A stretch of DNA of 55,150 nucleotides from Gammaproteobacteria bacterium (GTDB lineage: Bacteria; Pseudomonadota; Gammaproteobacteria; Pseudomonadales; Azotimanducaceae), in the NCBI GenBank assembly GCA_002728675.1, contig PBVL01000058.1, positions 2,232 to 57,381 on the forward strand. The letters run 5' to 3'. The stretch's first letter is position 1. Every line of letters starts with the position of its first letter. Below the pieces are notes generated by a model. It saw only the letters and a program-made list of their open reading frames with translations. It was not told the DNA's origin and searched no databases. Shown one piece after another: positions 2,907-18,832 of the stretch. Made by a program: the position numbers and the translations under genes.

Positions 2907-4085
2907 TCAGCTATCCTCGCGGCGAAAAGGCGTGTGCTCGTTGATGTAGTCGATTTCTTCGTCGACGTAGCCGCGTTCCTGCTCGAGGAAGTGGTCAACC
3001 GCCTCGCGAAACGACTCGTTCACGATCCAGTGCGCGCTGTAGGTGTGGCTCGGCAGGTAGCCGCGCGCCAGCTTGTGCGGGCCCTGCGCACCGGCCTCGA
3101 CGCGCTGCAGACCGCGGCTGATCGCAAACTCGATCGCCTGGTAGTAGCAGACTTCGAAGTGCAGAAACGGGTGATCCTCGATGCAACCCCAGTTGCGTCC
3201 AAAGAGGCACTCGCTCCCAATGAAGTTGATGGCCCCCGCAATGTAACGTCCGGCACGTTTGCACAGAATCAGCAATAGGTCGTCGAGCATGGTCTCGCCG
3301 ATAATGCTGAAGAACGCGCGCTTCAGATACGGTGAACCCCACTTGCGATGGCCGGTATCGACGTAGAACTGATAGAACGCGTCCCAGTGTTCTTCCCTCA
3401 GATCGGACCCGGTCAACAGTTCGATCTCTACACCGTTGGCAACGGAGTCCCGGCGTTCCCGGCGGATGTTCTTGCGCTTCTTGCTCGACAACGCAGCCAG
3501 GAAGTCATCGAACGTTGCATAGCCGTCGTTCTGCCAGTGGAACTGCTTGTGGGTGCGCTGCAGGAAACCCAGCTTGCCCATGCGTTCCCACTCCGCTTCT
3601 TCCGGAAATGTGATGTGCACGGAGGAGACTTTCATCTGCTCGGCAACCTGCATGCACCCGGAGAGCAGGTAGGACTCCAGTTCCTCGACATCCTCGTGCT
3701 GACGGGTCAGCAGACGCCTTCCCGTTGCCGGCGTGAACGGTACGGAGACCTGAAGCTTGGGATAGTAGTTACCGCCCGCGCGCTCGAACGCGTCGGCCCA
3801 CGAATAGTCGAACACGTACTCGCCCTGCGAGTGGTTCTTCAGATACATAGGCATGACCGCTAGCGTGCCCTCTTCCTCGCTCGTGAGCTCCAGATGGTAG
3901 GGCGCCCAGCCGGTACGCGCGCATGCGGACTCGCTCTCCTCCAGCGCGGAAAGAAACGCATAGCTCGTGAACGCATCGAACGGAATCCCGCAGTCCGGGT
4001 TTGCGCGCGCCGGATTGGCGCATGCGTCCCATGCCTCGCGACCAATGTCCGCAATACTGCCGTGCGCTTTGAGTGTGAAAGACAC
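2907..4085 (-). CDS. FemAB-like / DUF482 (COG3146) acyl- or aminoacyl-transferase-fold protein
   Basis: 392-aa ORF. The pattern FLSALEES......GW.P.HL......G.L....P.Y.K.HS.GEYVFD..WA.A.......YYPKL....PFTP..G.R matches the DUF482/FemAB_like family as I recall it. Last gene of the F420 operon, 18 nt after the LLM gene. Confidence 0.75.
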   Translation of the reverse strand: MSFTLKAHGSIADIGREAWDACANPARANPDCGIPFDAFTSYAFLSALEESESACARTGWAPYHLELTSEEEGTLAVMPMYLKNHSQGEYVFDYSWADAFERAGGNYYPKLQVSVPFTPATGRRLLTRQHEDVEELESYLLSGCMQVAEQMKVSSVHITFPEEAEWERMGKLGFLQRTHKQFHWQNDGYATFDDFLAALSSKKRKNIRRERRDSVANGVEIELLTGSDLREEHWDAFYQFYVDTGHRKWGSPYLKRAFFSIIGETMLDDLLLILCKRAGRYIAGAINFIGSECLFGRNWGCIEDHPFLHFEVCYYQAIEFAISRGLQRVEAGAQGPHKLARGYLPSHTYSAHWIVNESFREAVDHFLEQERGYVDEEIDYINEHTPFRREDS

Positions 4086-4103: not shown

Positions 4104-5114
4104 TCAGGCCCGCAATCGCGCCAGCAACTCTTTGCCGTGCTCGGCGTCGGCGACCGGGAGCGACAGCGTCGTTCGATCGGCCAGATCGCCGTACCTGGAC
4201 CTGAAGATGTCGACCACCGCGTCCACGTCTTCGGACACCACCGCAAACGCATCCAGAATCTCGTCGGTAATGAGCGTCCCCATCTGATCCCACTCGCCTT
4301 GTTTCGAGAGCCGGTTGAGTTCCGGCTGCAGATCACCCCACCCATGGAGCCCCAGCACCGGAGCGTAAGCAGGCGTCGAGCCATAGAACGCAATCTGTTT
4401 ACACACGGCCGTCTTGCTCGCCGCAAATGCCTCCTCGGTCTGCCCCGTCACGACAAATCCGGGATACGACACCTCAAAATCGTCCCGGGATCTTCCGTGG
4501 ACGGCGAGGCCTTTCCCGATCGCCGGCAACGTGACCTCGCGCAGATACTTCTCAGTCGTGAACGAGTGAATGATCACGCCGTCTGACACTTCACCCGCAA
4601 CTTCGGTCATCAGCGGCCCAACGGCTGCCAGAAACACCTTCGGCGCGCCGTAGTCGACATCAGTCGGCGTGAACATCGGCGTCATGAGCTTGTGCGTGTA
4701 GTAGTCGCCTTCGAACGCGAGACGCTCCCCCTTGTGCCAACTGTCCCAGATGGCCCGCATCGCGGTGATAAACTCGCGCATCCGCTTCGCCGGACTGGAC
4801 CAGGGCATCGAGAAGCGTTTCGTGATGTGGGCCTGAATCTGCGAGCCAAGCCCCAACACAAAACGCCCTTTGGAGAAGCTGTTCAGGTCGTGGCCGATGT
4901 TGGCAAGGTTCATGGGTGTCCGCGAGAACGCCACCGCGATGGACGTGATGAGTTCTATCCGCTCGGTTTCCTGGGCAGCGAGCAGCAACGGAAAGAACGG
5001 ATCGTGCGCCGTTTCCGCGGTGATGGCGCCGTCATACCCCATGGCCTCGAGTCGTTTGCCGGATGCCCCCGCCTGCGCGAGGTCTCCCATCAGACCGCTG
5101 TCAACTTTCATCAA
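4104..5114 (-). CDS. luciferase-like monooxygenase (LLM) class, probable F420-dependent oxidoreductase
   Basis: 336-aa ORF. LEAMGYDGAITAETAHDPFFPL, GRFVLGLGSQ and the TIM-barrel LLM pattern. Lies inside the F420 operon. Confidence 0.8.
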   Translation of the reverse strand: MMKVDSGLMGDLAQAGASGKRLEAMGYDGAITAETAHDPFFPLLLAAQETERIELITSIAVAFSRTPMNLANIGHDLNSFSKGRFVLGLGSQIQAHITKRFSMPWSSPAKRMREFITAMRAIWDSWHKGERLAFEGDYYTHKLMTPMFTPTDVDYGAPKVFLAAVGPLMTEVAGEVSDGVIIHSFTTEKYLREVTLPAIGKGLAVHGRSRDDFEVSYPGFVVTGQTEEAFAASKTAVCKQIAFYGSTPAYAPVLGLHGWGDLQPELNRLSKQGEWDQMGTLITDEILDAFAVVSEDVDAVVDIFRSRYGDLADRTTLSLPVADAEHGKELLARLRA

Positions 5115-5132: not shown

Positions 5133-6131
5133 CTAGAATTTGAAGTTCGCAGCCGAAAACGCTTCGGCCGTGGCCTCGTAGGCCTCCGGCACGACACACG
5201 CGATGATGTGCGTGTTCACTCCGGCATTGGCAAGGTCGCGAATGTCGTCCTGCACCTTCTCGCGGGACCCCACATGGGTGATCGAGTCCAGCAGTTCATC
5301 GTGCAACGCGCCCGTGGTTTTTGCCCTGTCCCGCGCGGCCCAACCTTCGGCAATCGCGTCTGCGGCGGCTTCCTGCCCGGCCCAGCGCAGGAACTTGTTG
5401 TAGACGGGGGTGGCATAGTACGGCGCAAAGTGTGACCGCAGTTTGTCCCGCGCCGCGTCGACGTCGTCAGTAACGGCACACTGATGTCGGCAGACAATCT
5501 CGATGTCCTCGAGTGTCTTGCCAGCCCGTTCGGCGCCGATGCGAACGTGCTCCAGCAACTTGGGCAACGCGTCACGCGGAAACAGATTGATGATCACGCC
5601 ATCTCCAACCTCGGCGGCCATCTCGAGCATCTTCGCGCGCAGACCCGCGATGTAGATCGGGGGCACTCCGGGCACGTCGGAGCCTGGCTGCGAATAGCCT
5701 TTGGAGCGGAGCGTCTCGCCCGCGAAGTCAGTTTTGCCACCCGCGAGGACGTGGCGCACGATTTCGACGGTTTCCTTCACGCGCGTCAACGGCTTCTCGA
5801 AGGTCACGCCATTCATGTTTTCCATCATGAACTGGCTCGACGATCCCAACCCCAGGATGAACCGGCCTTTCGAAACGTCGTGCAATACCTGGGCAGTCGC
5901 CGCGAGGACCGCGGGGGTGCGGGTGAACACGGGAATGATCGCGGTACCGATCCGAACGCGCTCGGTGAGCATTGCGACAGCGGACGCGGTGGTCAGTGAG
6001 TCGACGCCGGGTGTGTCGGCAAACCAGAGATCGTCGAACCCTTCATCCTCAGCCCACTTGGCATATTGGAACGTCTCGGGGATACCGTCCAGATTCGGCA
6101 TCGTCAGTGCGATTCTGTTTGGAATGGACAT
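5133..6131 (-). CDS. LLM class, probable F420-dependent oxidoreductase
   Basis: ORF 5133-6215. The homologous part starts at the internal ATG (MSIPNRIALTMPN...). AEDEGFDDLWFADT, GRFILGLGSS. AAGAGGAAG Shine-Dalgarno lies upstream of 6131. Confidence 0.8.
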   Translation of the reverse strand: MSIPNRIALTMPNLDGIPETFQYAKWAEDEGFDDLWFADTPGVDSLTTASAVAMLTERVRIGTAIIPVFTRTPAVLAATAQVLHDVSKGRFILGLGSSSQFMMENMNGVTFEKPLTRVKETVEIVRHVLAGGKTDFAGETLRSKGYSQPGSDVPGVPPIYIAGLRAKMLEMAAEVGDGVIINLFPRDALPKLLEHVRIGAERAGKTLEDIEIVCRHQCAVTDDVDAARDKLRSHFAPYYATPVYNKFLRWAGQEAAADAIAEGWAARDRAKTTGALHDELLDSITHVGSREKVQDDIRDLANAGVNTHIIACVVPEAYEATAEAFSAANFKF

Positions 6132-6159
6132 CAGCGCTACTCTTCCTCTTTGTGCTTGC

Positions 6160-6675
6160 TTACTGTTTTTGTTCTTTTTCCGCGTTCCGCAGATCCTGGT
6201 CCGCCTGTGGCGCATGCCAGATCTGTGGCTGAGTCTGGCCCATCAGGTCAGTCAGCGCCGACAGTTCGATCCGCCAGGGTTTGAGCTTCAGCAGGCCGTA
6301 GGTCGGGTCAGTCTTCCCGCCCTGCCAGATCATGCCAGGGTCGTAGCCAAGCGGCGGCGGTGTTGCTTTGAACAACTCCCAGATCCGCTCTTTCTCAGCC
6401 TGGTCATCTTCCCATGACGCCTCGCAGTCGGCGTAGATTTGCTGGTGGTCCTGATCCCAGTACGACAGCGTGAGGAACGGATTGGCTTCGAGGTGTTTGG
6501 CCTTCAGCGACTGCCGCCCTGTAGCGATCCAGCCGACGGTCCCTTCCCAGACAGGATGCAGCATGCGCGATCGCGGCCGTCCCTTGCGGTCGACCGTGGC
6601 AACCGACGCCCAGACGACTTTGGCAACCCGTTCGAGGAACGCCGCTTGAATTTCTGCAAAGTCTTCAACGACCAT
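6160..6675 (-). CDS. pyridoxamine-5'-phosphate-oxidase (PPOX) fold protein, possible F420/FMN-binding
   Basis: ORF 6160-6708. VATVDRKGRPRSRMLHPVW...ANP.LTLSYW is the split-barrel PPOX pattern. GGAG sits 7 nt before ATG 6675. Alternative starts: GTG 6708, ATG 6681. Confidence 0.7.
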   Translation of the reverse strand: MVVEDFAEIQAAFLERVAKVVWASVATVDRKGRPRSRMLHPVWEGTVGWIATGRQSLKAKHLEANPFLTLSYWDQDHQQIYADCEASWEDDQAEKERIWELFKATPPPLGYDPGMIWQGGKTDPTYGLLKLKPWRIELSALTDLMGQTQPQIWHAPQADQDLRNAEKEQKQ

Positions 6676-6723
6676 GGACATCTCCAATGGCGAGGTCCCG
6701 CGCTCCACGATCGGCTGCGCACA

Positions 6724-9252
6724 TCAGATGATGTCGGCGCTCGTGATCTTCTCGCCGTCATCCAGCAGACCGGGACGTACAAGCTCAGCCTTGTCGCGCT
6801 TGTTCGCTCTGTCGTATTTGCGCGCCGAGGTATAGGTCGGCTCAATCAACGTCTTCGCGCCAAACGAACGCGCGGTCTGCACTTCGCTGACCTCGCCATA
6901 GGCGGTACTGCGTTGTTTGGGTGTCCGGCCAGCGCTGCGGATGATGGCTTCCATCTCCTCCGGAGACGTCTCCTGGCCGTGGCTCGCGCCTGCCGCACGG
7001 GTGATGGTCTCGTTCATCAGCGTTCCGCCGAGATCGTTCACGCCCGCCTGCAGGCATGCTCTGACGCCGTCGTGCCCCAACTTGGTCCAGGACGCCTGGA
7101 TGTTGCTGAAGACGGGATGCAGCGCCAACCGGGCAACGGCATGAATCAGTACACCTTCGCGGAAGGTTGGGCCTTTCCGCGCCGCTCCCTTGAGGTAAAT
7201 CGGCGATTCCATGTGGATGAAGGGCAACACGACGAACTCGGTGAACCCGCCCGTACGTTCCTGCAGCCCGCGCAGCCGCAACAGGTGCCGCGCAACGTGC
7301 TCGTACCCTTCGATGTGACCGAACATCAGCGTCGCGGTGGTGTTGAAACCCACCTTGTGCGCGGCTTCCATGACTTCGAGCCACTGCGCGGTGTTGATCT
7401 TGTCCGGGCACAGCGTCGCCCGCACCTCGTCGTCCAGCACTTCGGCCGCGGTGCCCGGCAACGTGCCGAGCCCGGCTTCCTTCAGGTCCGTGAGAAACGA
7501 CTCAAGCGAGACGCCCAGCGTCTCCGCACCCTGCCAGACTTCGAGCGGCGAGAAGGCGTGCACATGCATGTCAGGGATGACCTGCTTGATCGCGTGCACG
7601 ATGTCGATGTACGTCTTGCCGGTGTATTCGGGGTGAATGCCGCCTTGCAGGCAGACTTCAGTCGCTCCGCGCTCGTGGGCTTCACGGGTGCGGCGCATGA
7701 TCTCTTCATGGGAGAGATCGTACGGACGTCCGCGCAGGTTCTCGCTCATCTTGCCTTTGGAAAACGCGCAGAACTGACATTTGAAGTAGCAGACGTTCGT
7801 GTAGTTGATGTTGCGGTTGACGACGTAGGTGACCGTGTCACCGGAGACCTCGCGACGGAGTTTGTCCGCGGCCGCACAGACGTGGGTGAAATCGTCACCC
7901 CGCGCCTGCATGAGGCGCACGATGTCGGCCTCGTCGAGTTTCTTCCCGTCATCAACCTTCGCGAGAATCGCAGCGACATCAGGGCTCGGCGCGAGTTTGG
8001 GAATTGCCGTGACCCGCGCCAGATCCGCGGCGGGTGGGTCTTCGACCGCGCCGGCGGCCCAGTTCTCGGTTCGGGCGAATCCCTGTCCGTCGAGCGCCTG
8101 CCGGACGGCCGGCTGCAGTTGGGGATCGATCCAGCGTTCCACGTCGCGGGCCCAGGCGGGATACAGCGCGAGGCGTTCGTGCAGGTGTTTACCCGCGGCA
8201 GCCGTTTCGTTGGCGAGGTTCGTGAGGTGCGGCCAGGGCGCTTCCGGATTGACAAAATCCGGAGTCACCGGCGACACGCCGCCCCAGTCGTTGATGCCCG
8301 CGTCCACGATCTGGGGCAACACGCCGGGTGACAGGTTCGGGGGTGCCTGCACGTTCATGTCCTGGCCAAAGATGATCCGCGCGACGGCAATGGTCCAGAG
8401 CAGTTCGTTCAGGTCCGGCTCCGGGGCGTCGACCATCAGCGTGTCGGGCTTCGCTCGGAAGTTCTGAATGATGATTTCCTGCAGGTTGCCGTAGTCAGCC
8501 TGCACGGCGCGCAAGTCCAGCAGGGACTGCACCCGTTCGAGGCGCGTCTCGCCAATGCCGATCAGAATCCCGGACGTGAACGGCACCGCGGCCTCGCCGG
8601 CAAGACGCATGGTCTCGATGCGCCGCGCAGGCACTTTGTCAGGTGAGCCGTAATGCGGCATCCCCTTCTCTCCCAGGCGCTCCGACGAACTCTCGAGCAT
8701 GATGCCCATCGAGATCGAAACCTTGCGCAACACCTCGAAGTCCGCGGCATCCATCAATCCCGGGTTGAGGTGCGGGAAGAGGCCCGTCTCTCTGTAAACA
8801 AGTTCAGCCATGTCGCGCAGGTAGGTCAGCGTCGACTCCTGGCCCATCGCCTCGAGCGCTTCGCGCGCCGCGCGGTAGCGCAACTCGGGCTTGTCGCCCA
8901 GCGTGAACAGCGCCTCCTTGCAGCCCGCCTTCGCGCCGTCCCGCGCAATCCTGAGCACCTCATCCGGAGTGAGATAGGGCGCCTTCACCTTGCGCGGCAC
9001 CTGCGCAAACGTGCAGTAGTGGCAAACATCCCGACACAGGTGCGTCAGGGGAATGAAGACTTTCCGCGAGTAGGACACGGTATTGCCGTGTCCGGCATCG
9101 CGAATCCTGCCAGCGGCCGCGACCAGGGCGGCGGTGTCGGTGTAGTCCGCCAGCGCAAGCGCCTGCGCATCAGTTGGCACATGGCCCGCGATCGCCGCCT
9201 CAAGTATTTCCGAAATGCCTTGCATGCTTCCCGTCTGGATTGACTCGGTCAC
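6724..9252 (-). CDS. fbiC: bifunctional FO synthase (7,8-didemethyl-8-hydroxy-5-deazariboflavin synthase, CofG+CofH fusion)
   Basis: 842-aa ORF with two radical-SAM CxxxCxxC motifs (CRDVCHYCTF in the N-terminal half, CYFKCQFCAF in the C-terminal half). Collinear with FbiC. 4-nt overlap with cofC. Confidence 0.95.
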   Translation of the reverse strand: MTESIQTGSMQGISEILEAAIAGHVPTDAQALALADYTDTAALVAAAGRIRDAGHGNTVSYSRKVFIPLTHLCRDVCHYCTFAQVPRKVKAPYLTPDEVLRIARDGAKAGCKEALFTLGDKPELRYRAAREALEAMGQESTLTYLRDMAELVYRETGLFPHLNPGLMDAADFEVLRKVSISMGIMLESSSERLGEKGMPHYGSPDKVPARRIETMRLAGEAAVPFTSGILIGIGETRLERVQSLLDLRAVQADYGNLQEIIIQNFRAKPDTLMVDAPEPDLNELLWTIAVARIIFGQDMNVQAPPNLSPGVLPQIVDAGINDWGGVSPVTPDFVNPEAPWPHLTNLANETAAAGKHLHERLALYPAWARDVERWIDPQLQPAVRQALDGQGFARTENWAAGAVEDPPAADLARVTAIPKLAPSPDVAAILAKVDDGKKLDEADIVRLMQARGDDFTHVCAAADKLRREVSGDTVTYVVNRNINYTNVCYFKCQFCAFSKGKMSENLRGRPYDLSHEEIMRRTREAHERGATEVCLQGGIHPEYTGKTYIDIVHAIKQVIPDMHVHAFSPLEVWQGAETLGVSLESFLTDLKEAGLGTLPGTAAEVLDDEVRATLCPDKINTAQWLEVMEAAHKVGFNTTATLMFGHIEGYEHVARHLLRLRGLQERTGGFTEFVVLPFIHMESPIYLKGAARKGPTFREGVLIHAVARLALHPVFSNIQASWTKLGHDGVRACLQAGVNDLGGTLMNETITRAAGASHGQETSPEEMEAIIRSAGRTPKQRSTAYGEVSEVQTARSFGAKTLIEPTYTSARKYDRANKRDKAELVRPGLLDDGEKITSADII

Positions 9253-10043
9253 GTCGCCCCCAGGCCCACAGTGTTGTCGTTGTCTTCCGCACCCGAAGAA
9301 GCGGCGCGTTCAAGCTGGTCGATGGTACCACTTGAGTCAAGAAAACTGCGGGTTCTGGGCGCCCCGCCCCCACGCGCCACCAGCGCATGCAGGTCCCGGG
9401 GAAAGTCCACGTCCAGCCCCACGCCTTCCAGCATCAGCGTCACTGGCGTGATACCTGCCTCGCGGGCAATTGTCATGTGTTTACGGTAACTGTCGAGGCC
9501 GAACGCGAACCGCATGCACCCGGGCGGCGCGGTCAGAAGCAGATTGGTGCCCCCGAGATCCTCCGCAGGAGCAACGATCATCCGGGAGCCTTCCTGAGCG
9601 CGCCGGTAGGCATCAATGGCGGCCGCGAGTTCGGCGGTGGTCGCAAGCGGAATGTCGGCAGGGAGAAACACCATCGCCGCAGCCTTCGAGGCCCGCAGCC
9701 ACGCCCCGGTTTCGGTAACCGCCGGTATGAGACCCCGTGTCTCCGGTTCCGGGCGGATCAATGCCCCGAAGCGAGCCGCCAGTTCGCGTACTTCAGCGTC
9801 GTCGGTGAGGACCACGCAGCCGTCGAGCGCATCGCACGACGTCGCAACCTCGAGCACGTCCCCAACCATCGCGCGAAACAACCCTGAGCGTTGCGAGGAC
9901 GACAGCAGCCCGGCGAGGCGCTGCTTTGCATCCGCAATCTGCTTGATGGGGATCACGGCATAGATGCCGCCGGCGCGGACTCCCGCCTGCGTGGCGGCGC
10001 CGTCGGGTTGCACGCAGTCCTGCTCTGGATCGGTTCCGGTCAT
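9249..10043 (-). CDS. cofC: phospho-acid guanylyltransferase of F420 biosynthesis (CofC/FbiD)
   Basis: ORF 9249-10151. Core IYAVIPIK....AKQRL...L...R..L..AM..DVL and GGTN are CofC-like. Start uncertain: ATG 10043, GTG 10082, or TTG 10151 (which overlaps cofD by 23 nt). Confidence 0.8.
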   Translation of the reverse strand: MTGTDPEQDCVQPDGAATQAGVRAGGIYAVIPIKQIADAKQRLAGLLSSSQRSGLFRAMVGDVLEVATSCDALDGCVVLTDDAEVRELAARFGALIRPEPETRGLIPAVTETGAWLRASKAAAMVFLPADIPLATTAELAAAIDAYRRAQEGSRMIVAPAEDLGGTNLLLTAPPGCMRFAFGLDSYRKHMTIAREAGITPVTLMLEGVGLDVDFPRDLHALVARGGGAPRTRSFLDSSGTIDQLERAASSGAEDNDNTVGLGAT

Positions 10044-10128
10044 GGGCTCGGGCCGCGGTGATTGCAGAAGAACCGGGGGCACGCGGCGTATTCCCGGGAA
10101 GGAGGTGAGCGCTTCAGGCTCGCAGCCC

Positions 10129-11085
10129 CTAAGCTCGTAGAGAGGCGGCAAACGCCAGGGTATCGCGCGCCAGTTGCTCTCGGTCGGCCAACGTTACCAT
10201 GACGGTCTGCGTCACAGTAGCGGCGGGCCCTGCTTCCCGCACCAAATCGGCACTGTCCAGATCAGCCTCATCAATCACCAGACCATCGATGCGACCTGCG
10301 TAGTGACGCGCCACCGAGACGGGGTCCCGGGGCATGCCCAATTCATCCATCATCTTCGCTGCGGGCCCCTTGAGCGCCTGGCCACCGACGATCGGCGACA
10401 CCGCGACGACCGGCGCGTCACTGCCGTCGAGAGCAGCCTGCACGCCGGGCAGCTTCAGCACGGGATCGACTGAAACGAACGGATTCGACGGACAGATCAC
10501 CACGCAATCGAGGTCGCTGCGCGCAAGCGCGTCGGCAAACCCCGCCGCCGGTGCCGCGCGCTCAATCCCTTCGAAGCGAAACCCCGCGACGACCGGCTCA
10601 CACTGATCGCGGACGAAGTAGTGCTGAAACGCGAGGTCGCCACCGTCCTTCAGTTCGACGATCGTCGGCACGGGATCGTCGCTCATGGGCACGATCGGAT
10701 GCGCCACGCCCAGCCGGCGGCAGAGATCTCCGGTCACCGTCGAGAGGCTGCGGCCCTCGGCGAGCCAGCGCGTGCGCGTGATGTGCGTTGCGAGATCCCG
10801 GTCGCCAAGCCGGAACCAATCCTCACCGCCCAGCGCGCTCAAGGCGTCAAGGAAATTCCAGCTCTCTCCGGCGAGGCCCCAACCGGCCTCTTTGTTGGAG
10901 AGGTCCGCAAGGGTGTACATCACCGTATCGAGGTCGGGGCAGATCGTGAGACCAAGGTGCGTGAAATCGTCGCCCGTGTTAGCGACGATCGTCAGCCTGT
11001 CGGGGGGCAGAATCCGCGACAGGCCAAGCGCGAGCTTGGCCCCGCCAACTCCGCCAGACAGGGCCACCACGTGTCCATCAGCCAT
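10129..11085 (-). CDS. cofD: 2-phospho-L-lactate (or analogue) transferase, F420-0 synthase
   Basis: 318-aa ORF. N-terminal VVALSGGVGGAKLALGL and the ICPSNPFVSVDPVL motif are typical of CofD/FbiA. Confidence 0.9.
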   Translation of the reverse strand: MADGHVVALSGGVGGAKLALGLSRILPPDRLTIVANTGDDFTHLGLTICPDLDTVMYTLADLSNKEAGWGLAGESWNFLDALSALGGEDWFRLGDRDLATHITRTRWLAEGRSLSTVTGDLCRRLGVAHPIVPMSDDPVPTIVELKDGGDLAFQHYFVRDQCEPVVAGFRFEGIERAAPAAGFADALARSDLDCVVICPSNPFVSVDPVLKLPGVQAALDGSDAPVVAVSPIVGGQALKGPAAKMMDELGMPRDPVSVARHYAGRIDGLVIDEADLDSADLVREAGPAATVTQTVMVTLADREQLARDTLAFAASLRA

Positions 11086-11100
11086 GACGATGAGCGCCGC

Positions 11101-11880
11101 TCACCTGAAGAGATCCATGTCACGCGGCCGGATGAGCGGCTGTACACCGCGCTGATCCATGGCTTCCGGCTCGCGGGGTGCATACCCGCGTACGAGCACG
11201 ACCGGGGTTTTCTCGTCGGTCTGGCCCATGACCAGAGACGCGCCCGCCGCCATTTCATCCGCGGCACCCACCTGCGTGACGACCAGTTCCCGGCCGAAGA
11301 TGTCCTGTCCGCCGATGTGGTCTTCGAGCGCGGTGAACCCGGCAACGCCGATGGCAAGTCCGAGCGATCCGTTGCGCCAGGCGCGCCCGATGCTGTCGTT
11401 GATGATCACCCCAACCCGGACACCGAGCCGGGTTGCAACCGCTTCGCGCAAGGCTCTTGCGCTCGCATCCGGATCTTCCGGGAGGAGCAGACAGATCGCT
11501 TCGGGATCGTCGGCATCACCCTCGATGTTCGACTGATCGATGCCAGCGTTCGCCTGCACGAAGCCGAGTCTGTGTTCGACGATCAGCACGCCGGGTCGCT
11601 TGCGGACAACCTCGACGGATTCGTCGAGGATCGCCTGCACCTTGCGAGGCTCTTTGTCGACCTCTGCACCGAGCGCAACCGCCTCCGCAGACGGTTCGAC
11701 CGTCCGCAGATCGAGGTAGCGGTCTTCCGCCTTGGACACGATCTTCTGGGCGAGGACCAGGACGTCACCATCCTGAATCGTCTCGCCGATCGTGGCGAGC
11801 CCGGCGTTGATCAGTTCGAGCAGGTCGTCACCGGGTTCCACCATCGGAATCCCGGGTATACCGATGAAGGCGAGTTGCAT
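11101..11880 (-). CDS. cofE: coenzyme F420-0:L-glutamate ligase (stand-alone CofE, no FbiB nitroreductase domain)
   Basis: 259-aa ORF. PGDDL...I......DGDVLV.AQKIVSKAE, ANAGID.SN and NDS.GRAWR.G motifs of CofE. Confidence 0.9.
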   Translation of the reverse strand: MQLAFIGIPGIPMVEPGDDLLELINAGLATIGETIQDGDVLVLAQKIVSKAEDRYLDLRTVEPSAEAVALGAEVDKEPRKVQAILDESVEVVRKRPGVLIVEHRLGFVQANAGIDQSNIEGDADDPEAICLLLPEDPDASARALREAVATRLGVRVGVIINDSIGRAWRNGSLGLAIGVAGFTALEDHIGGQDIFGRELVVTQVGAADEMAAGASLVMGQTDEKTPVVLVRGYAPREPEAMDQRGVQPLIRPRDMDLFR

Positions 11881-11884
11881 CGCG

Positions 11885-12559
11885 CTATTCTCCGGACACG
11901 GGCTCGCCGGTGATCGTGATGCCGGACCCTTCGATTTTGTGATGACGGTTGATGGTGATCAGGACCGACGTGAGCGCCTCCGCCGCCGACGCGTTGGCAA
12001 GCGGCCCGGCGTGCCAGCCCTTCAGGCCCGCCGCCTCGACCAGTTCGATCACCTTGTCCCGTGCGGCCCGTTTGTTGCCCGTGACCAGCACGTCGCAAGC
12101 AATGGCATGATCTTCGCGGAGATGCTGTGCGCCGACGTTCTGGAAGGCGGAAACCACCTGCACGTCCTCACCAAGGCAATCCTGGGCCATTTCGGCCGCG
12201 GAACCGCGTTCGGGCATCTGTACGGTCCCCACTTTTGGCGGAACCAGCGGTACGGTGACATCCACGAGGACCTTGCCGACGAGACCGGGTTTCACGACTT
12301 CGAGCGTGCTGACCTGGTGCGCAAACGGTACGGTCAGCACGACGATGTCAGCCTGAGTCGCCGCATCGAGGTTCTCCATGCCGGTGACGTTGAGGTCTGC
12401 AAACTCGGCAAGCAGGTCCGCCGCCGCCTGCTGGCCCTTCTCCAGCGTCCTCGAGCCGATGATGATCGTATAGCCCGCCCGCGACCAGCGACGCGCAAGA
12501 CCGCCTCCTAGATCGCCAGTTCCGCCCAGAATAGCGATGGTTTCTTTCGCGTCCGACAT
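11885..12559 (-). CDS. npdG: NADPH-dependent F420 reductase (Fno/NpdG)
   Basis: ORF 11885-12712. The homologous part begins at the internal ATG (MSDAKETIAILGGTGDLGGGLA...), which has the Fno-type dinucleotide fold motif. 4-nt gap to cofE. Confidence 0.85.
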   Translation of the reverse strand: MSDAKETIAILGGTGDLGGGLARRWSRAGYTIIIGSRTLEKGQQAAADLLAEFADLNVTGMENLDAATQADIVVLTVPFAHQVSTLEVVKPGLVGKVLVDVTVPLVPPKVGTVQMPERGSAAEMAQDCLGEDVQVVSAFQNVGAQHLREDHAIACDVLVTGNKRAARDKVIELVEAAGLKGWHAGPLANASAAEALTSVLITINRHHKIEGSGITITGEPVSGE

Positions 12560-12600
12560 TGTGTTGCACCGTATGACAGGGGCCGCGGAGTATACAGTCG

Positions 12601-13206
12601 TCAGAAGCCGGCCGCGCGGTCCAACCGGCTGTGAAGCAACGTCACGCACTGTGAGGCAAAGAGTGTTGTCGGCCCAAGCGCGAGCGGCTGCGCCCCCAGG
12701 CGCCGGAGCCAACGGGCCGTATTACGCGGCAGCGGCGTGTGATCCGTCAGGACGAACGTGGGGTCCGGGACATCGGTGAGGCCCTCGATGTCGTCTCCGC
12801 GTCGATCCAGAAGGTAGAGCGGACCGGCCCCGGCAAGCTCCTTCACGAAGTGCTCGAAACTCGTCGCACGCACTTCGACCCCCGCATCGGTCCGCAGCGA
12901 GCCGTCCTTGGGAAGCGCCCGCGCGGCATCCAGGGGGCCTGCAACCGCTTCCACCAGCGCGGCCTCGGTGAGTCCGGGCAGCGTCCCGATGACGCCACCG
13001 TCGAACGTCACCACGCGCGAAAAGTCCTGCGAGCGCTCGAGCACCAGGTGCACCACGGTGTCGGAGCGGTGTCCCTGTGCCACGAACAGGGCGTCGACAA
13101 GGATGCGCACCAGAAACTCGACTCGCGGGCCCTGGCCCACCGCCGCGCGGAACGCGGCGGCCTCGGTTGGCGCGGAGCGCGCCTTGATGACGAATCGCCT
13201 TGTCAC
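12601..13206 (-). CDS. TrmY-like (DUF358) SPOUT-superfamily protein, function unknown in bacteria
   Basis: ORF 12601-13362. The N-terminal 52 aa of the long ORF are low-complexity G/P/R. The in-frame GTG at 13206 gives a 201-aa product (V)TRRFVIKARSAPT...FLVRILVDALFVAQGHRSDTVVHLVL...PTFVLTDHTPL...LFASQCVTLLHSRLDR. This follows the block order I recall for archaeal TrmY (Mj1640). First gene of the F420 operon. Confidence 0.6.
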   Translation of the reverse strand: MTRRFVIKARSAPTEAAAFRAAVGQGPRVEFLVRILVDALFVAQGHRSDTVVHLVLERSQDFSRVVTFDGGVIGTLPGLTEAALVEAVAGPLDAARALPKDGSLRTDAGVEVRATSFEHFVKELAGAGPLYLLDRRGDDIEGLTDVPDPTFVLTDHTPLPRNTARWLRRLGAQPLALGPTTLFASQCVTLLHSRLDRAAGF

Positions 13207-13456
13207 TGCCCCACCCCCCAGGCGCCAGGATTGTCGGCTTGTCTTCCAACCCGGGCCAGGCCCCGTGCCCCTGCATGCCTCAGGCCCCCGTTCGCGTGCA
13301 GGGGCGCCCCGTCCGGGAGGGCCTGACGCCTGCTGATCCGGCGCCTGAGCCACTGTCCGCATCGGGTCGATCTCGCACAGGTTTCCGGTTCTGCGGCCGG
13401 GTTACGGGCCTGCCGGCGGTTCCCTGGCGCGGTCGGCAGACGTTTTCCACATTTTC

Positions 13457-13465
13457 TGTGGATAA
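13457..13465 (-). promoter_or_regulatory. perfect DnaA box (TTATCCACA on the minus strand)
   Basis: The plus strand reads TGTGGATAA at 13457-13465. A second, same-orientation 8/9 box TGTGCATAA lies at 13646-13654. Both sit in the AT-richer 0.9 kb intergenic island. Confidence 0.35.
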
Positions 13466-13738
13466 CTCTGGTGATAAGCCTCTCCAAAGTGCCCGAAACC
13501 CCCGCTACACGGGCTTTGAGCAAGTTTGTACATTTTTTACACAGATGGAACATTGTCTTATAAATCAGCCACCTATCGATTAAGCATATGGAGAAGCGGC
13601 AAAGATCGCCGGGCGAACCGTTCGTCTGTCGGTTTTTTCGACGCGTGTGCATAAGTACTTGGACAAATCGGCGCAAAAACCCTGATTTTGCAGTGGAAAC
13701 GGGCTTAATGGTGTCAAAATCTCGACATCTGACCCTAC

Positions 13739-13771
13739 TTGACAACTTTCCGCGTCCTGTAAAACAGGGGG
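13739..13771 (+). promoter_or_regulatory. possible sigma70-type promoter (TTGACA -35) facing the acyl-CoA synthetase gene
   Basis: TTGACA at 13739-13744, followed after 15 nt by TAAAAC. The -10 match is weak. Purely sequence-based. Confidence 0.2.
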
Positions 13772-14147
13772 CCAAACCGCCGTCGCTTGTACGCGTTCTC
13801 TTACACACCACCTTGCGCGTCCTCGCCGCGCGTTCGATCCGCGCAGAGCGCGGTCCGTACCGTCGTACTCAACAACCCGACGCCCCCAGCGGGGCCACAT
13901 TGTGCATCCACCGGCTTACGATTCCGCCAGAGGACTCTGCCGTCGTTGCCCAAACGGTGAGGACCGGCAGGTGCCCGGGCGGACAGTACGCGCTCATTCT
14001 TCGAAAAAAACCCGGGATATCGCCACCGAATGGCCACACTACCGGCACAATGATGTCACTTGAACCATCAGCGCTGCACCGGAGCCGCGACCTGACCCCA
14101 AGTCAAAAACGGTACACTTGCCCACGATTGAACGGGACCGACACACG

Positions 14148-15938
14148 ATGAGCATTGCCGACATTCTGGGTGACCTCAAAGTTCTCTACACCGCTGCCAC
14201 ACGCAAAGCACCTGACGGCAACTCCGCCGAGTCGTTTGGCCTGATGATCGCGCAGAACGCGTCGCGGTGGCCGAACGAGACGGCGCTCATCTGTGAGGAC
14301 GAGTCGGTGACCTGGCAGGAACTGAACTCGCGCGCCAACCATGTCGCAAGTGAACTGCGCGCAAAGGGCATTGGCGCGGGCGACTGCGTCGCACTGTTCA
14401 TGCAGAACCGGATCGACTTCGTCGCGACGCTGGGCGGGATCGTCAAGCTCGGCGCGGTCGCGGGATTGATCAACACCAACCTGACCCGTGCGCCGCTCGC
14501 CCACTGCATCAAGCTCATCGAGTCCAAGGCGTGTATCTTCGGTGAAGAACTGACGGAAGCGCTGAATGAGATTCGCGATGAACTGAGTCTCAGGGGCGGC
14601 GAGGACTACCTGTACGTCGCCGACGAAGGCAACACCCCACCGCCCAACTGGGCGACAGGCCTCGACACGCACGGGTCCAGTCCCTCGAGCCCGACCGAGA
14701 CGGCGAGCGTTCGGTTGAAAGACACCGCGTTCTACATCTTCACATCCGGTACGACCGGGCTGCCGAAAGCCGCGGTCGTCTCCCACAAGCGGGTGATGCC
14801 GGCTGCGATGATGTCCGCGACAATGTTGCAGCGGATCGATCAGAAAGACCGCATGTACAACTGTCTGCCCCTGTATCACGGGACCGGACTCATCATCGGT
14901 ATGGCGTCCGCGTTCGCTGTTGGCGCATCAACGGTCATCAAACGCAGGCTGTCCGTGAGCGCGTTCTGGGACGACATCCGTCAGCACAACTGCACCTCAT
15001 TCGTATACATCGGCGAGTTCATCCGCTATCTGCTCTCACGGCCAGAGCATCCCTCCGATGCTGACAACCCCGTCCGCACAATCGTTGGGAACGGCCTCCG
15101 GCCGGACATCTGGCAGGACTTCAAGGAGCGTTTTGCGATTGACCGGATTGGCGAGTTCTATGCCGCAAGCGAAGGCAACGGCGGCTTTGCGAACCTGTTC
15201 AACAAGGACGCCACCGTCGGTTTGCCCATCGCCCCCTGTGCGCTGATCGCCTACGACGTTGCACAAGACGAGATCGTTCGGGGATTGGACGGCCTTTGCC
15301 AACGAGTTCCCGAAGGGGCGGCGGGACTGCTGCTGATCGAGGTGACCGGAAAGTCAGAGTTCGAGGGCTACACCAGCGCGGAGGCGAGCGAGAAGAAACT
15401 GTTGCGCAACGTGTTCGAGCAGGGCGACGTCTGGTTCAACAGCGGCGACCTGATGAAGATCGTCGACGTCGGTTTCGCGTACGGACAGAAGCACTACCAG
15501 TTTGTCGACCGGGTCGGCGACACCTTTCGCTGGAAGAGCGAGAACGTGTCGACCAACGAGGTGGGCGAGATCGTTAACCAGCATCCCGATATCATTTTCA
15601 CCAACGTCTATGGCGTAACGATTCCGGGCACCGACGGTCGCGCCGGCATGGCAGCCATAGTGTTTCGCGACGACCTCGGAAAACCGGATCTCGAGGCCAT
15701 CTCAGCCCATGTGCGCGACAACCTGCCCAGCTATGCGCAACCGATATTCCTGCGCATACTGAAGGAACTGCCGACGACGTCCACACACAAGCTGCAGAAG
15801 AACGATCTGCGGGATCAGGCGTTTCATCTCGACAAGACGGGCGATGACCTCTACGTGATGCGCCCCCGCGAGACCGTCTATACGCGTCTCGACAGTGACT
15901 ACTACGATCAGATCATGCGTCGTGAAGTGGCTTTCTGA
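14148..15938 (+). CDS. FATP/FadD6-type long-chain acyl-CoA synthetase
   Basis: ORF 14118-15938 (TTG). The ATG at 14148 gives MSIADILGDLK... AMP-binding motif YIFTSGTTGLPKAAVVSH plus the FATP-like C-terminal GDTFRWKSENVST motif. Confidence 0.85.
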   Translation: MSIADILGDLKVLYTAATRKAPDGNSAESFGLMIAQNASRWPNETALICEDESVTWQELNSRANHVASELRAKGIGAGDCVALFMQNRIDFVATLGGIVKLGAVAGLINTNLTRAPLAHCIKLIESKACIFGEELTEALNEIRDELSLRGGEDYLYVADEGNTPPPNWATGLDTHGSSPSSPTETASVRLKDTAFYIFTSGTTGLPKAAVVSHKRVMPAAMMSATMLQRIDQKDRMYNCLPLYHGTGLIIGMASAFAVGASTVIKRRLSVSAFWDDIRQHNCTSFVYIGEFIRYLLSRPEHPSDADNPVRTIVGNGLRPDIWQDFKERFAIDRIGEFYAASEGNGGFANLFNKDATVGLPIAPCALIAYDVAQDEIVRGLDGLCQRVPEGAAGLLLIEVTGKSEFEGYTSAEASEKKLLRNVFEQGDVWFNSGDLMKIVDVGFAYGQKHYQFVDRVGDTFRWKSENVSTNEVGEIVNQHPDIIFTNVYGVTIPGTDGRAGMAAIVFRDDLGKPDLEAISAHVRDNLPSYAQPIFLRILKELPTTSTHKLQKNDLRDQAFHLDKTGDDLYVMRPRETVYTRLDSDYYDQIMRREVAF

Positions 15939-16826: not shown

Positions 16827-17025
16827 CTCCACCCCTGCCGAGCCGGATGCCCTGAGGACAGGCGTTTCGCGACTTCGTCCGGACGTTCGTGACCGCCGCC
16901 GCGTTGGCAGTGGTCATGATGGATCCGGGGAACGCGGTGTGGTGGCAGATGCCGGTGGCTTCGAAACTCACGCCGGCGACGTACAATTTTCATCGCGCGA
17001 CACGTCATGGGTGCGCTGCTGAAAG

Positions 17026-17080
17026 CAGCCGGAGGCCGGCTGACCAGGGGGGCGGCGGCGCTCCGGGCCGGGCGCCGCCC
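17026..17080. terminator. two GC-rich hairpins in the convergent spacer (possible bidirectional terminator)
   Basis: CAGCCGG-AGG-CCGGCTG (17026-17042, perfect 7 bp) and GGGCGGCG...CGCCGCCC (17050-17080) lie between two convergent stop codons. No clear U-tract. Confidence 0.3.
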
Positions 17081-17086
17081 GCTCCG

Positions 17087-17989
17087 TCAGAAGATGCTGA
17101 GGAGTTCCTCGAAGGCCACCATCTGACCGCCATTTGCCGAACTGGGCACAAGGATTGGCGTCTTGATGCCGGCATCGAACCAGGCTTCGATCTGCTCGCG
17201 CACGTGGCTTGCCGGTCCGAACAGCGTCGTGTCCGCAAGCCACTTGTCGGTGAGGAAGTGCGGAATCCTGTCGCGCTCACCGTTGGCCAGCGCCTTCTCG
17301 ATTCCCTCCATCTCCTCGACGTAGCCCGCCTCTTTCCAGTAGTTCCGGTAATTTGGCAGCATGGCGTAGCTCGTGAGCGTCTTGCGATTCACCGCGGCCG
17401 CCGCTTCGATGTCGTCGTTGATGCAGGTCGGAATCATGTCACCGATAAAGAAGTTGTCATCGTTGCGCGTGGCATCCGAAACGACGGACAGCGATTCGGC
17501 CATGTGGGAACGGGCACCGTTCGCGAAGACCATACCGTCACCAATCTCCTCGGAGAGCGCAATCATCTTCTTGCGCAGTGTTGCGAGTACGATCGGCGCC
17601 AATTCCCCGACCCGCGGCACAGCCTTCAGGTCTTCGACAAACTGGCGCGTGTCCGCGAGCGGCTTGCCCGCCGAGATACCGCGGGCCTGAAGTGCCGGCG
17701 CATGACTGACGCCGACGCCGAAGCGGAATCGTCCATCCGATACCTCATGGATGAAACTTGCGGTCGCCGCGAAGTCCTCCACCGAGCGGAAATACATGGG
17801 CACTATGCTCGTTCCGAACGTGATCTCATTCGTGGCAAATGCAAGCGCTTCACACAGCGCGAGCGAGTCCCCGAGGCTCGGCCCGAAGATTCCGGTGAAT
17901 CCGCGGCGTTCGATCTCCCGCGCGAGTTCGATGGTCGCCTTGCGACGACCCGGTACAGCCGCGAGGCTGAGTGCTGGCATACGCGTCAT
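17087..17989 (-). CDS. LLM class oxidoreductase, probably F420- or flavin-dependent
   Basis: ORF 17087-18001 (TTG). ATG 17989 is preceded by GGAG at 6 nt. GRFRFGVGVSH and the TIM-barrel LLM pattern. Confidence 0.8.
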   Translation of the reverse strand: MTRMPALSLAAVPGRRKATIELAREIERRGFTGIFGPSLGDSLALCEALAFATNEITFGTSIVPMYFRSVEDFAATASFIHEVSDGRFRFGVGVSHAPALQARGISAGKPLADTRQFVEDLKAVPRVGELAPIVLATLRKKMIALSEEIGDGMVFANGARSHMAESLSVVSDATRNDDNFFIGDMIPTCINDDIEAAAAVNRKTLTSYAMLPNYRNYWKEAGYVEEMEGIEKALANGERDRIPHFLTDKWLADTTLFGPASHVREQIEAWFDAGIKTPILVPSSANGGQMVAFEELLSIF

Positions 17990-18139
17990 GTCTGTCTCCA
18001 AATCCGGCCAATTTGCGAATGCCGCGAGTCTAGCGCGAAACGCGCTGCTCGATTCCCCCCGCCCCCGCTGTCGGTTCGTGCCGATGCAGCGGCGCGTCCG
18101 GTGCTACTATCCCGGCACCGAAACGACCAAGGAATACCG

Positions 18140-18832
18140 GTGGCACGGCGTAGAGACAAGGCCCTCCGCACACAGAAAATTGCAGTCGGCGCTTTTGGCG
18201 TTCTCGTTCTCGGACTCGTCGGCTATCTGTTCTGGCTCGTCCTCTCCGAGGCCCCCTCGGGCGAGTTTGTCGAAGGCGAGCACTACTTCCTGATCGAGAA
18301 CCCGGCCAGGACGTCCGGCGAGCGCGTCGAGGTGACCGAGTTCTTTTCCTATGCGTGTATCCACTGTTTCAACTTCGACCCGATTCTCGAGGATTGGGTC
18401 GAGGACAACGCCGCACAGATCGCATTCCGCCGGTCGCCGGTGTTCACCAACGAACCCTGGCGGGTGTTGGCTACCCACTTCTACACCACACTCGAACTCG
18501 GCAATTTCGAAGAGGTGCACACAGCGTTCTTCCGCGAACTGCACGTTGCGAGCCGACAACTCCTGACCCGGGACGCCATCGCCCGATGGATCGACGGACG
18601 CGACGTGACCGAGGAGCGCTACATCGAAATGTACGGTTCCCAGCGGGTTCGCGCGCGGATGACGGCCGCCGACCGGCTTCAGCGCCAGCTTCAGGTAGCG
18701 ACCGTTCCGACCGTGGTGATCGCCGGTAAGTACCGCGTCCGGACCACCTCCGAAATCGGCCCGAAACGGATGCTCGAAATCATGAAGCACCTTGTCGACA
18801 AAGAACTGGCCGAGCGGCAACCAGCGGGCTGA
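18140..18832 (+). CDS. DsbA-family thiol:disulfide oxidoreductase with N-terminal membrane anchor or signal
   Basis: C-terminal third of track ORF 16889-18832; the rest is antisense to the LLM gene. GTG 18140 is preceded by AAGGA at 6 nt. Hydrophobic segment IAVGAFGVLVLGLVGYLFWLVL, redox motif FFSYACIHCFNF (CxxC), and VPTVVIAGKY cis-Pro region. Confidence 0.8.
   Translation: MARRRDKALRTQKIAVGAFGVLVLGLVGYLFWLVLSEAPSGEFVEGEHYFLIENPARTSGERVEVTEFFSYACIHCFNFDPILEDWVEDNAAQIAFRRSPVFTNEPWRVLATHFYTTLELGNFEEVHTAFFRELHVASRQLLTRDAIARWIDGRDVTEERYIEMYGSQRVRARMTAADRLQRQLQVATVPTVVIAGKYRVRTTSEIGPKRMLEIMKHLVDKELAERQPAG

Follow-up and report, generated by a model that had tools for sequence, protein, structure and literature searches.

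The question raised by this locus is what a relative of TrmY, the archaeal tRNA pseudouridine-54 N1-methyltransferase, does in a bacterium and directly beside the genes for the biosynthesis of cofactor F420. The locus is part of a 55,150-nucleotide (nt) stretch of contig PBVL01000058.1 from a Gammaproteobacteria bacterium, which was analysed at its full length and is termed the window; coordinates are window positions throughout. The TrmY-like gene (12601..13206, reverse strand) precedes an npdG-cofE-cofD-cofC-fbiC cluster on the same strand, and the original prediction, which was made from the sequence alone, had regarded it as an archaeal-type gene at the head of a bacterial F420 operon. The account that is favoured here, with moderate confidence, is that the gene encodes an S-adenosylmethionine (SAM)-dependent SPOUT RNA methyltransferase that would act on the N1 atom of a pseudouridine in bacterial RNA, that it is transcribed separately at a low level, and that it neighbours the F420 genes by synteny.

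Translation from the GTG codon at 13206-13204 yielded 201 codons followed by the TGA stop codon at 12603-12601, in agreement with the expected length of about 201 amino acids, and the four peptide blocks on which the original prediction had relied were all found in the deduced protein in the order claimed. The protein matched the Pfam family PF04013 (Methyltrn_RNA_2, DUF358) with an E-value of 1.8e-41 and 142.5 bits versus a cut-off of 25.5, residues 3-198 being aligned with positions 2-196 of the 198 positions of the profile. A sequence search of the PDB identified the Vibrio cholerae protein VC_A1059 (2QWV) as the best match, with 3e-48 over residues 3-198, along with MJ1640 (3e-15) and AF_1056 (1.5e-14). 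An AlphaFold2 model generated with 22 homologues reached a mean predicted local distance difference test value (pLDDT) of 92.1 and a predicted template modelling score (pTM) of 0.90, and it contained no disordered segments. Foldseek comparisons of this model gave template modelling (TM) scores by target length of 0.90 and 0.94 for two chains of 2QWV, 0.89 for 3AIA and 0.85 for 2QMM; by query length, the scores for DUF358 structures were 0.83-0.88, with root mean square deviations of 1.8-2.5 Å to 2QWV, 3AIA, 3AI9 and 2QMM. The DUF358 structures were followed in the list of matches by the further SPOUT enzymes Nep1, TrmL, RsmE and YibK. Both the profile search and the structure search thus recovered DUF358/SPOUT, as had been anticipated, and the full-length superposition of the model on knotted crystal structures argues for an alpha/beta trefoil-knot fold of the DUF358 type.

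With an ATG codon further upstream the same open reading frame (ORF) spans 12601..13362 on the reverse strand, and some public annotations specify the resulting protein of 253 amino acids; the 201- and 253-residue versions co-occur in one 90% cluster. The GTG codon at 13206 is better supported than the ATG codon at 13362, since the homologues begin at the GTG position, the start of 20 of 21 aligned homologues being located within one residue of it. The in-frame extension (13207..13362, reverse strand), over which an RNA contig (X27, 13201-13385) was found, is therefore probably a 5' untranslated region rather than coding sequence. One public protein, P0002 (220 amino acids, encoded on a 766-bp ENA contig), combines 66 N-terminal residues that resemble an NAD-dependent epimerase with a TrmY-like part that begins at about residue 50 and is 98% identical to the window protein. 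This apparent fusion is probably an assembly chimera, because the junction sits at the short motif D-x-V-V-H-L, which we take to be similar to a motif common in short-chain dehydrogenases/reductases (SDR) and epimerases.

The designation archaeal-type does not apply to this gene. By its sequence, the window protein is a member of the bacterial COG1901 subgroup and not an archaeal TrmY proper: it belongs to a large, monophyletic, mainly gammaproteobacterial subfamily, which is marked by invariant residues of its own and for which a structure has been solved (2QWV), and its end-to-end match to the NCBIfam TrmY equivalog NF002560 (E-value 4.7e-45, 153.5 bits) remains under the curated cut-off of 183. 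COG1901 was assigned to the SPOUT superfamily by Tkaczuk et al. 2007 (PMC1829167), and its bacterial subgroup appears in the literature as "bacterial unknown methylase" (PMC1829167, PMC5041015) and is listed as functionally distinct (PMC5041015). The model superposes on VC_A1059, a structural-genomics entry named "UPF0217 protein", with TM scores of 0.88-0.94 and a deviation of 1.8 Å, and both proteins share the monophyletic bacterial clade and its invariant residues, whereas their sequence identity is about 40-45%. Moreover, F420 genes are not found near VC_A1059 and its relatives in the Vibrionaceae, whereas the window protein falls into a deep, fast-evolving and F420-linked part of the clade. 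With the archaeal TrmY proteins (Mj1640, 3AIA/3AI9; AF_1056, 2QMM) the window protein shares the Pfam family and the fold, with TM scores of 0.85-0.89, and by analogy the SAM dependence and a uracil-type base as target are probably common to both, but the sequence identity is only 25-28%. The SPOUT enzyme Nep1/Emg1, an N1-methyltransferase for pseudouridine in 18S/16S rRNA, provided the next-best structures (Foldseek E-values from 8e-8 to 1e-4, TM scores of about 0.55-0.65) and has a chemistry identical to that of TrmY, but it is only 10-13% identical to the window protein, carries extra insertions, occurs in archaea and eukaryotes and plays a role in ribosome assembly.

A comparison of F420-linked (n=35) with unlinked (n=68) homologues yielded 34 positions that are at least 90% conserved in both groups, the only fixed difference between the groups being L/M at position 98. 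Fifteen of these 34 positions are identical in MJ1640 and AF_1056, including R47, E81, G137, D155-H156, S176, P179, L182, C187 and D196, and most of them fall within the C-terminal half, the site of the SPOUT knot; the residues G137, F151, D155-H156, S176, P179, L182 and C187 are identical between bacterial and archaeal members. The protein probably binds SAM, probably does the same job whether or not F420 genes lie nearby, and has probably shifted in specificity away from archaeal TrmY. With respect to the nearest relative, the ratio of nonsynonymous to synonymous substitution rates (dN/dS) was 0.12 for the TrmY-like gene, 0.02 for npdG, 0.11 for cofD and 0.19 for cofC, at a dS of about 1.4 that is near saturation. 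The TrmY-like protein is 78% identical to its counterpart in this relative versus 95% for NpdG and thus evolves much faster. Nevertheless the gene is under purifying selection, and its ORF is intact at all loci compared.

The position of the gene beside the F420 cluster was compared among relatives in two directions. A genome scan with one genome per species detected TrmY-like relatives in at least 589 genomes, and the neighbourhoods of the best 80, nearly all of them Gammaproteobacteria by label or genus, were examined with flanks of up to 10 kb a side. At 12 of these 80 loci the TrmY-like gene is located directly upstream of npdG-cofE-cofD-cofC-fbiC, all 12 being from marine metagenome-assembled genomes (MAGs) labelled as Pseudomonadales, Gammaproteobacteria or Proteobacteria, including Ca. 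Azotimanducaceae. F420 genes were not found in the examined flanks of the remaining 68 of the best 80 loci, which derive from Photobacterium, Vibrio, Shewanella, Alcanivorax, Lysobacterales and others. No neighbour common to all bacterial homologues was found either, the neighbours of the 68 unlinked loci being conserved within the genus only; in Vibrio they include an ArsP permease, DUF3087 and a small protein called ArsR-like solely by its sequence, and in Photobacterium a POT transporter and a DCC1-like protein. For the converse comparison, npdG served as the anchor in metagenome loci. Among those that have an npdG with 74% or more identity to the window gene and enough upstream DNA, the TrmY-like gene was present at nearly every locus, with the exceptions L104 and L106, and it was usually located 40-400 nt and twice 4-5 kb upstream of npdG. 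At about 30 loci with the same operon order and npdG identities of 54-67%, the TrmY-like gene was absent within up to 6 kb. Additionally, six homologues that were looked up individually (P0003, P0005, P0007, P0008, P0013 and P0049) turned out to be linked to F420 genes, and the deep-branching homologue P0055 is unlinked.

The co-directional adjacency to F420 genes is accordingly confined to one lineage, in which it was seen at the 12 genome loci, at about 20 metagenome loci and in the six protein look-ups; in total, the F420-adjacent position was recorded at about 45 loci, all from this single marine lineage of Gammaproteobacteria. The genome and metagenome neighbourhood scans indicate that the linkage is real, old and restricted to one lineage, and the locus data do not reveal a co-occurrence with F420 genes across taxa, since about 30 operons lack the TrmY-like gene and 68 of the 80 best loci show no F420 gene in the examined flanks of up to 10 kb a side. 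The lineage-wide synteny is unreported in the searched literature, in which no paper was found that names VC_A1059 or ties DUF358 to F420.

Neighbour-joining trees with archaeal roots, consisting of two archaeal sequences in some trees and of dozens in another, placed the bacterial TrmY-like sequences as a monophyletic clade on a long stem and not inside the archaeal TrmY clade. The nearest archaeal neighbours are of the DPANN type and comprise P0102, which is encoded beside ribosomal protein S17e, and proteins named Nanoarchaeia and Woesearchaeota; we know of no F420 production in this group. The unlinked sequences form one nested clade inside the bacterial clade (84/100 bootstraps).

With respect to transcription, the original prediction had pointed out that the TrmY-like gene is located 41 nt upstream of npdG without an obvious terminator. 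The spacer (12560..12600, reverse strand) between the stop codon of the TrmY-like gene and the ATG codon of npdG at 12559 indeed measures 41 nt, and the terminator scan detected nothing. The further conclusion of the original prediction that the TrmY-like gene leads the F420 operon is not supported, in view of a conserved promoter belonging to npdG, of the ends of RNA contigs in the spacer, of the spacer length in relatives and of insertions between the two genes in relatives. When the regions upstream of npdG from 36 distinct loci are aligned, a sigma-70-like promoter emerges as conserved (TTGTTT-N17-AATAAT). Of the 36 loci, 31 have a -10-like hexamer, at a median distance of 32 nt before the ATG codon, and 22 of these 31 also possess a -35 hexamer. 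In the window, the hexamer TATACT (12594-12589) is located 29 nt from the ATG codon of npdG, a distance identical to that of TATAAT at locus L161, and it represents the positional equivalent of AATAAT or TATAAT in the relatives. In relatives the median spacer measures 122 nt (range 40-400 nt), in contrast to the junctions of 4-15 nt or overlaps within the operon; that of the window is compressed, so that the stop codon of the TrmY-like gene lies between the positions of the -35 and -10 hexamers, the former of which is unrecognisable. A consensus promoter scan of positions 11500-14300 at default stringency yielded nothing, and the promoter is visible only by aligning the upstream regions of the relatives.

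The RNA contigs covering npdG in four independent marine metatranscriptomes end at 12564, 12565, 12569 and 12578. All four ends fall within the spacer, shortly downstream of the transcription start predicted from TATACT, and none of the contigs reaches the methyltransferase ORF. Words of the npdG sequence were detected in 10 RNA runs versus one run for words of the methyltransferase gene, and RNA over the latter consisted only of a 168-nt contig (12797-12964) and of contig X27 on the 5' end, at low depth. Unrelated genes interrupt the junction of the TrmY-like gene with npdG in three relatives and probably in a fourth. These insertions include an opposite-strand luciferase-like gene at L169, an opposite-strand aldehyde dehydrogenase gene along with a TIR-TPR gene (a domain pair seen in defence-type genes) at L090 (1508-5499), and, at L092 (2301-5450), a gene for a large beta-barrel protein of the outer membrane that has a carboxypeptidase-regulatory-like domain. 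At the loci L169 and L090 the promoter remains with npdG. The promoter, RNA-contig and insertion data consequently do not reveal a co-transcription of the TrmY-like gene with the F420 genes.

Regarding the substrate, it had been argued that the canonical target should not exist in a bacterium, and this argument was upheld. A passage of PMC5682645 describes Pus10, the enzyme that makes pseudouridine-54, as absent from Bacteria, the window host being expected to lack both, and a 2025 map of tRNA modifications in V. cholerae reports TrmA-made 5-methyluridine (m5U54) in nearly all tRNAs (PMC12588516). This paradox is real but already published, and it is weaker than it appears, since recognition by the family depends on the pseudouridine and not on position 54 as such. 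Mj1640 is intrinsically promiscuous: in vitro it acts on any accessible pseudouridine, both in 8-mers and in cellular RNA, with a preference for a psi-U or psi-psi context (PMC13171889), and position 54 is therefore no prerequisite for activity. A review of SPOUT enzymes states that nearly all characterised members act on RNA and reports one protein substrate, small-molecule substrates being unmentioned (PMC9508554). RNA-modification genes, including genes for a pseudouridine synthase, were not found among the genes of the 55-kb window.

In the favoured account, the gene product would be a SPOUT methyltransferase from the bacterial branch of COG1901/DUF358 that is catalytically competent and depends on SAM, and this enzyme would methylate N1 of a pseudouridine at a site of bacterial RNA other than archaeal tRNA position 54, by analogy with TrmY/Mj1640 and, more distantly, with Nep1. 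The F420 genes would be transcribed mainly from their own promoter in the spacer, and the methyltransferase gene would form a separate, weakly expressed unit with a function independent of F420. The location of the TrmY-like gene upstream of npdG-fbiC would be the result of synteny inherited within a single marine gammaproteobacterial lineage (GTDB Pseudomonadales, among them Ca. Azotimanducaceae). The position beside the F420 genes may be the original one for the bacterial branch. Taken together, the evidence argues against a functional meaning of the F420 synteny.

Several observations weigh against this account. Nineteen residues that are invariant in the bacterial proteins differ from archaeal TrmY, for example R10, H46, E57, R64, K100, T154, P158, P160 and R169, and the bacterial chemistry could therefore differ from N1-methylation of pseudouridine. 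The comprehensive tRNA map of V. cholerae mentions neither m1-pseudouridine nor TrmY nor the VC_A1059 gene (PMC12588516), so that tRNA may not be the target, or expression of the enzyme may be conditional. The RNA evidence consists of assembled contigs with depths of 2-14, which show presence and not absence, and a weak read-through into npdG is possible because no terminator follows the TrmY-like gene. The adjacency to npdG is kept across a divergence at which CofC proteins are only about 40-50% identical, which is more persistent than a random neighbourhood usually is and leaves room for a functional tie. Furthermore, parsimony placed the F420-linked state at the root of the bacterial clade in 97/100 bootstraps, with linked members in basal positions, and this result was unchanged when the deep sequences P0055 (unlinked) and P0049 (linked) were added. 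It suggests that the bacterial branch first resided beside the F420 cluster and later spread elsewhere. Such an ancestral F420 position is a lead and not a result, because the sampling favoured linked loci, a distance method was applied and the linked branches are long.

Among the alternatives, an enzyme coupled to F420 fares best, although we regard it as improbable. Such an enzyme would methylate a deazaflavin or a uracil-type precursor (FO, F420 or 5-amino-6-ribitylaminouracil) or otherwise serve the cofactor pathway under common regulation. The retention of the position next to npdG at about 45 loci, while the genes farther upstream vary, is in line with this idea, as are the basal position of the linked members, the undetected terminator and the chemical similarity that the pseudouridine base presumably has to the pyrimidinedione ring of deazaflavins. 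However, the 68 unlinked homologues carry identical conserved residues, with L/M98 as the only group-specific substitution, most of the proteobacterial npdG-fbiC operons that were sampled do not carry the TrmY-like gene, and in front of npdG there are a separate promoter, the end points of RNA contigs and, in relatives, inserted genes. The preference of characterised SPOUT enzymes for RNA (PMC9508554) likewise speaks against it, and the new small-molecule or deazaflavin substrate considered in the original prediction found no support in the comparison of linked and unlinked homologues.

It is very doubtful that the gene is a decaying or non-catalytic passenger, either a transfer relic kept by chance or a nucleotide-binding protein devoid of methyltransferase activity. 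Its evolution at a much faster rate than npdG (78% versus 95% identity to the nearest relative) and its weak representation in metatranscriptomes would fit, but the dN/dS value of 0.12, the intact ORF at all loci, the high-confidence model without disordered segments and the invariant motifs in the C-terminal half, the region of the SPOUT knot and cofactor pocket (G137, D155-H156, S176, G178-P179, L182 and C187), render a non-catalytic protein, which had been proposed earlier, unlikely. A further reading that we rate as equally doubtful starts from a single transfer of a DPANN-type TrmY gene into an ancestor of a marine gammaproteobacterial lineage, to a site beside the F420 island, where it would have been kept for methylation of a uracil-like ring in the deazaflavin pathway (FO, F420 or 5-amino-6-ribitylaminouracil) or for an RNA modification that depends on F420 redox chemistry, the unlinked copies of the Vibrionaceae being a later offshoot; if true, the enzyme would become the first SPOUT methyltransferase with a small-molecule substrate or a link to a cofactor.

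A true TrmY orthologue that makes m1-pseudouridine-54 in tRNA, as in Euryarchaeota, is highly improbable. The full-length match to the NCBIfam TrmY profile, the fold shared with MJ1640 and the name TrmY given by NCBI to MBJ38623.1, a near-identical marine Gammaproteobacteria MAG protein that shares the 90% cluster of the window protein, are opposed by the score under the equivalog cut-off (153.5 versus 183 bits), by the functionally distinct listing of the bacterial subgroup (PMC5041015), by the passage on the absence of Pus10 from Bacteria (PMC5682645), by the lack of a pseudouridine synthase gene in the 55-kb window and by the m5U54 of bacterial tRNAs, which is made by TrmA also in V. cholerae, the bearer of VC_A1059 (PMC12588516). 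Finally, the earlier suggestion of a passenger that arrived with the F420 pathway from Archaea as a single block is scarcely credible: TrmY and F420 are both typical of Euryarchaeota and the linked members are basal among the bacterial homologues, but the nearest archaeal relatives in the neighbour-joining trees are of the DPANN type, and the npdG-cofE-cofD-cofC-fbiC order with fused fbiC exists without the TrmY-like gene at about 30 more distant loci, so that the F420 operon is older than the linkage.

The bacterial branch of COG1901 has been represented by a crystal structure since 2007 and was flagged as an unknown methylase. To our knowledge, N1-methylpseudouridine has not been reported from bacterial RNA, and the identification of the target would therefore add a new RNA modification to bacteria. 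The present data add that the branch is widespread, with members in at least 589 species-level genomes, that its deepest members adjoin the F420 biosynthesis cluster in marine Gammaproteobacteria, and that this neighbourhood reflects descent and not shared transcription. Annotation pipelines should consequently not name proteins of the bacterial branch "tRNA pseudouridine(54) methyltransferase TrmY", nor should the TrmY-like gene be listed among the genes of F420 biosynthesis. Which substrate the bacterial DUF358 proteins use is a genuine question that has been posed before, and the locus of the window is no more tractable for this purpose than VC_A1059 of V. cholerae.

The F420 cluster of the window itself is encoded on the reverse strand and comprises npdG (11885..12559; NADPH-dependent F420 reductase; TIGR01915, 197 bits versus a cut-off of 149.8; PF03807), cofE (11101..11880; F420-0:gamma-glutamyl ligase; TIGR01916, 262.7 bits; PF01996), cofD (10129..11085; 2-phospho-L-lactate transferase; TIGR01819, 291.7 bits; PF01933), the guanylyltransferase gene cofC, also named fbiD (9249..10151; TIGR03552, 138.7 bits; PF01983), and fbiC, a fusion of cofG and cofH (6724..9252; FO synthase; NF006687, 1160 bits). 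The true start of cofC is probably located downstream of 10151, since the family match begins at residue 65. The junctions inside the cluster measure 4 and 15 nt or are overlaps, and the window thereby shows exactly the gene order of proteobacterial F420 operons, which was seen at about 80 metagenome loci. It differs from them by the DUF358 gene, which only one sub-lineage, with npdG identities of at least 74% to the window gene, carries upstream and which lies outside the conserved promoter of the operon.

Downstream of fbiC, and likewise on the reverse strand, the window contains a PNPOx-like gene (6160-6708; PF01243) and two genes of the luciferase-like monooxygenase family (5133-6215 and 4104-5114; both PF00296), followed after these oxidoreductases by a FemAB-like gene (2907-4085). 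The PNPOx-like and luciferase-like proteins belong to families rich in F420-dependent enzymes and may depend on F420 as well. Luciferase-like genes also occur around the F420 cluster in the relatives L161, L168 and L169. On the other side, a 910-nt non-coding gap separates the TrmY-like gene from a divergent acyl-CoA synthetase-like gene (acs, AMP-binding; 14118..15938, forward strand; PF00501, PF13193). Its synteny with the F420 cluster holds for most of the linked relatives, and tblastn detected it with 53-67% identity at 11 of the 12 linked genome loci. Further along the forward strand, an ORF of 647 amino acids (16889-18832) has a weak DSBA-like match only in its last 310 or so residues, the syntenic DsbA-like protein of relatives consisting of about 231 amino acids, and it is probably over-extended. 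An Rfam scan of the whole window at the gathering threshold gave no match.

In at least eight relatives, a same-strand gene of the beta-lactamase family (serine hydrolase, about 380-400 amino acids) is located directly upstream of the TrmY-like gene, namely at L168 (3783-4949), L169 (3863-5008), L021 (2907-4070) and five other loci. The distance is about 50 nt at L168, and the two genes overlap by 8 nt at L169; in these relatives the beta-lactamase-family gene may be the real operon partner of the methyltransferase gene. A tblastn search of the 910-nt gap of the window did not find remnants of beta-lactamase-family or major facilitator superfamily (MFS) genes, the upstream genes of relatives.

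The gap between acs and the TrmY-like gene contains a conserved non-coding element (about 13435-13760, reverse strand). Its most prominent part is a perfectly conserved 36-nt block, TTATCACCAGAGTTATCCACAGAAAATGTGGAAAAC (13442..13477, reverse strand), with a DnaA-box-like inverted repeat whose core consists of a perfect DnaA box and an inverted near-copy 5 nt away; further blocks are located at about 13710-13735, at 13638-13655 (with TTATGCACA) and at 13525-13538. With up to three mismatches allowed, the 24-mer core was detected at 25 distinct F420-linked loci and at none of the unlinked loci examined, always in the same orientation and adjoining the divergent acs gene. Window-wide, 9-mers similar to TTATCCACA are not enriched (5 found versus 3.5 expected), and the element has neither an Rfam match nor coverage by RNA contigs. 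A role as chromosomal replication origin (oriC) was rejected, the GC skew being uniformly negative across the window without a switch; the element could be a DnaA-box cluster or an operator of another regulator. The metagenome relative L086 (2945-3800) carries three tandem copies of it, spaced about 410 nt apart.

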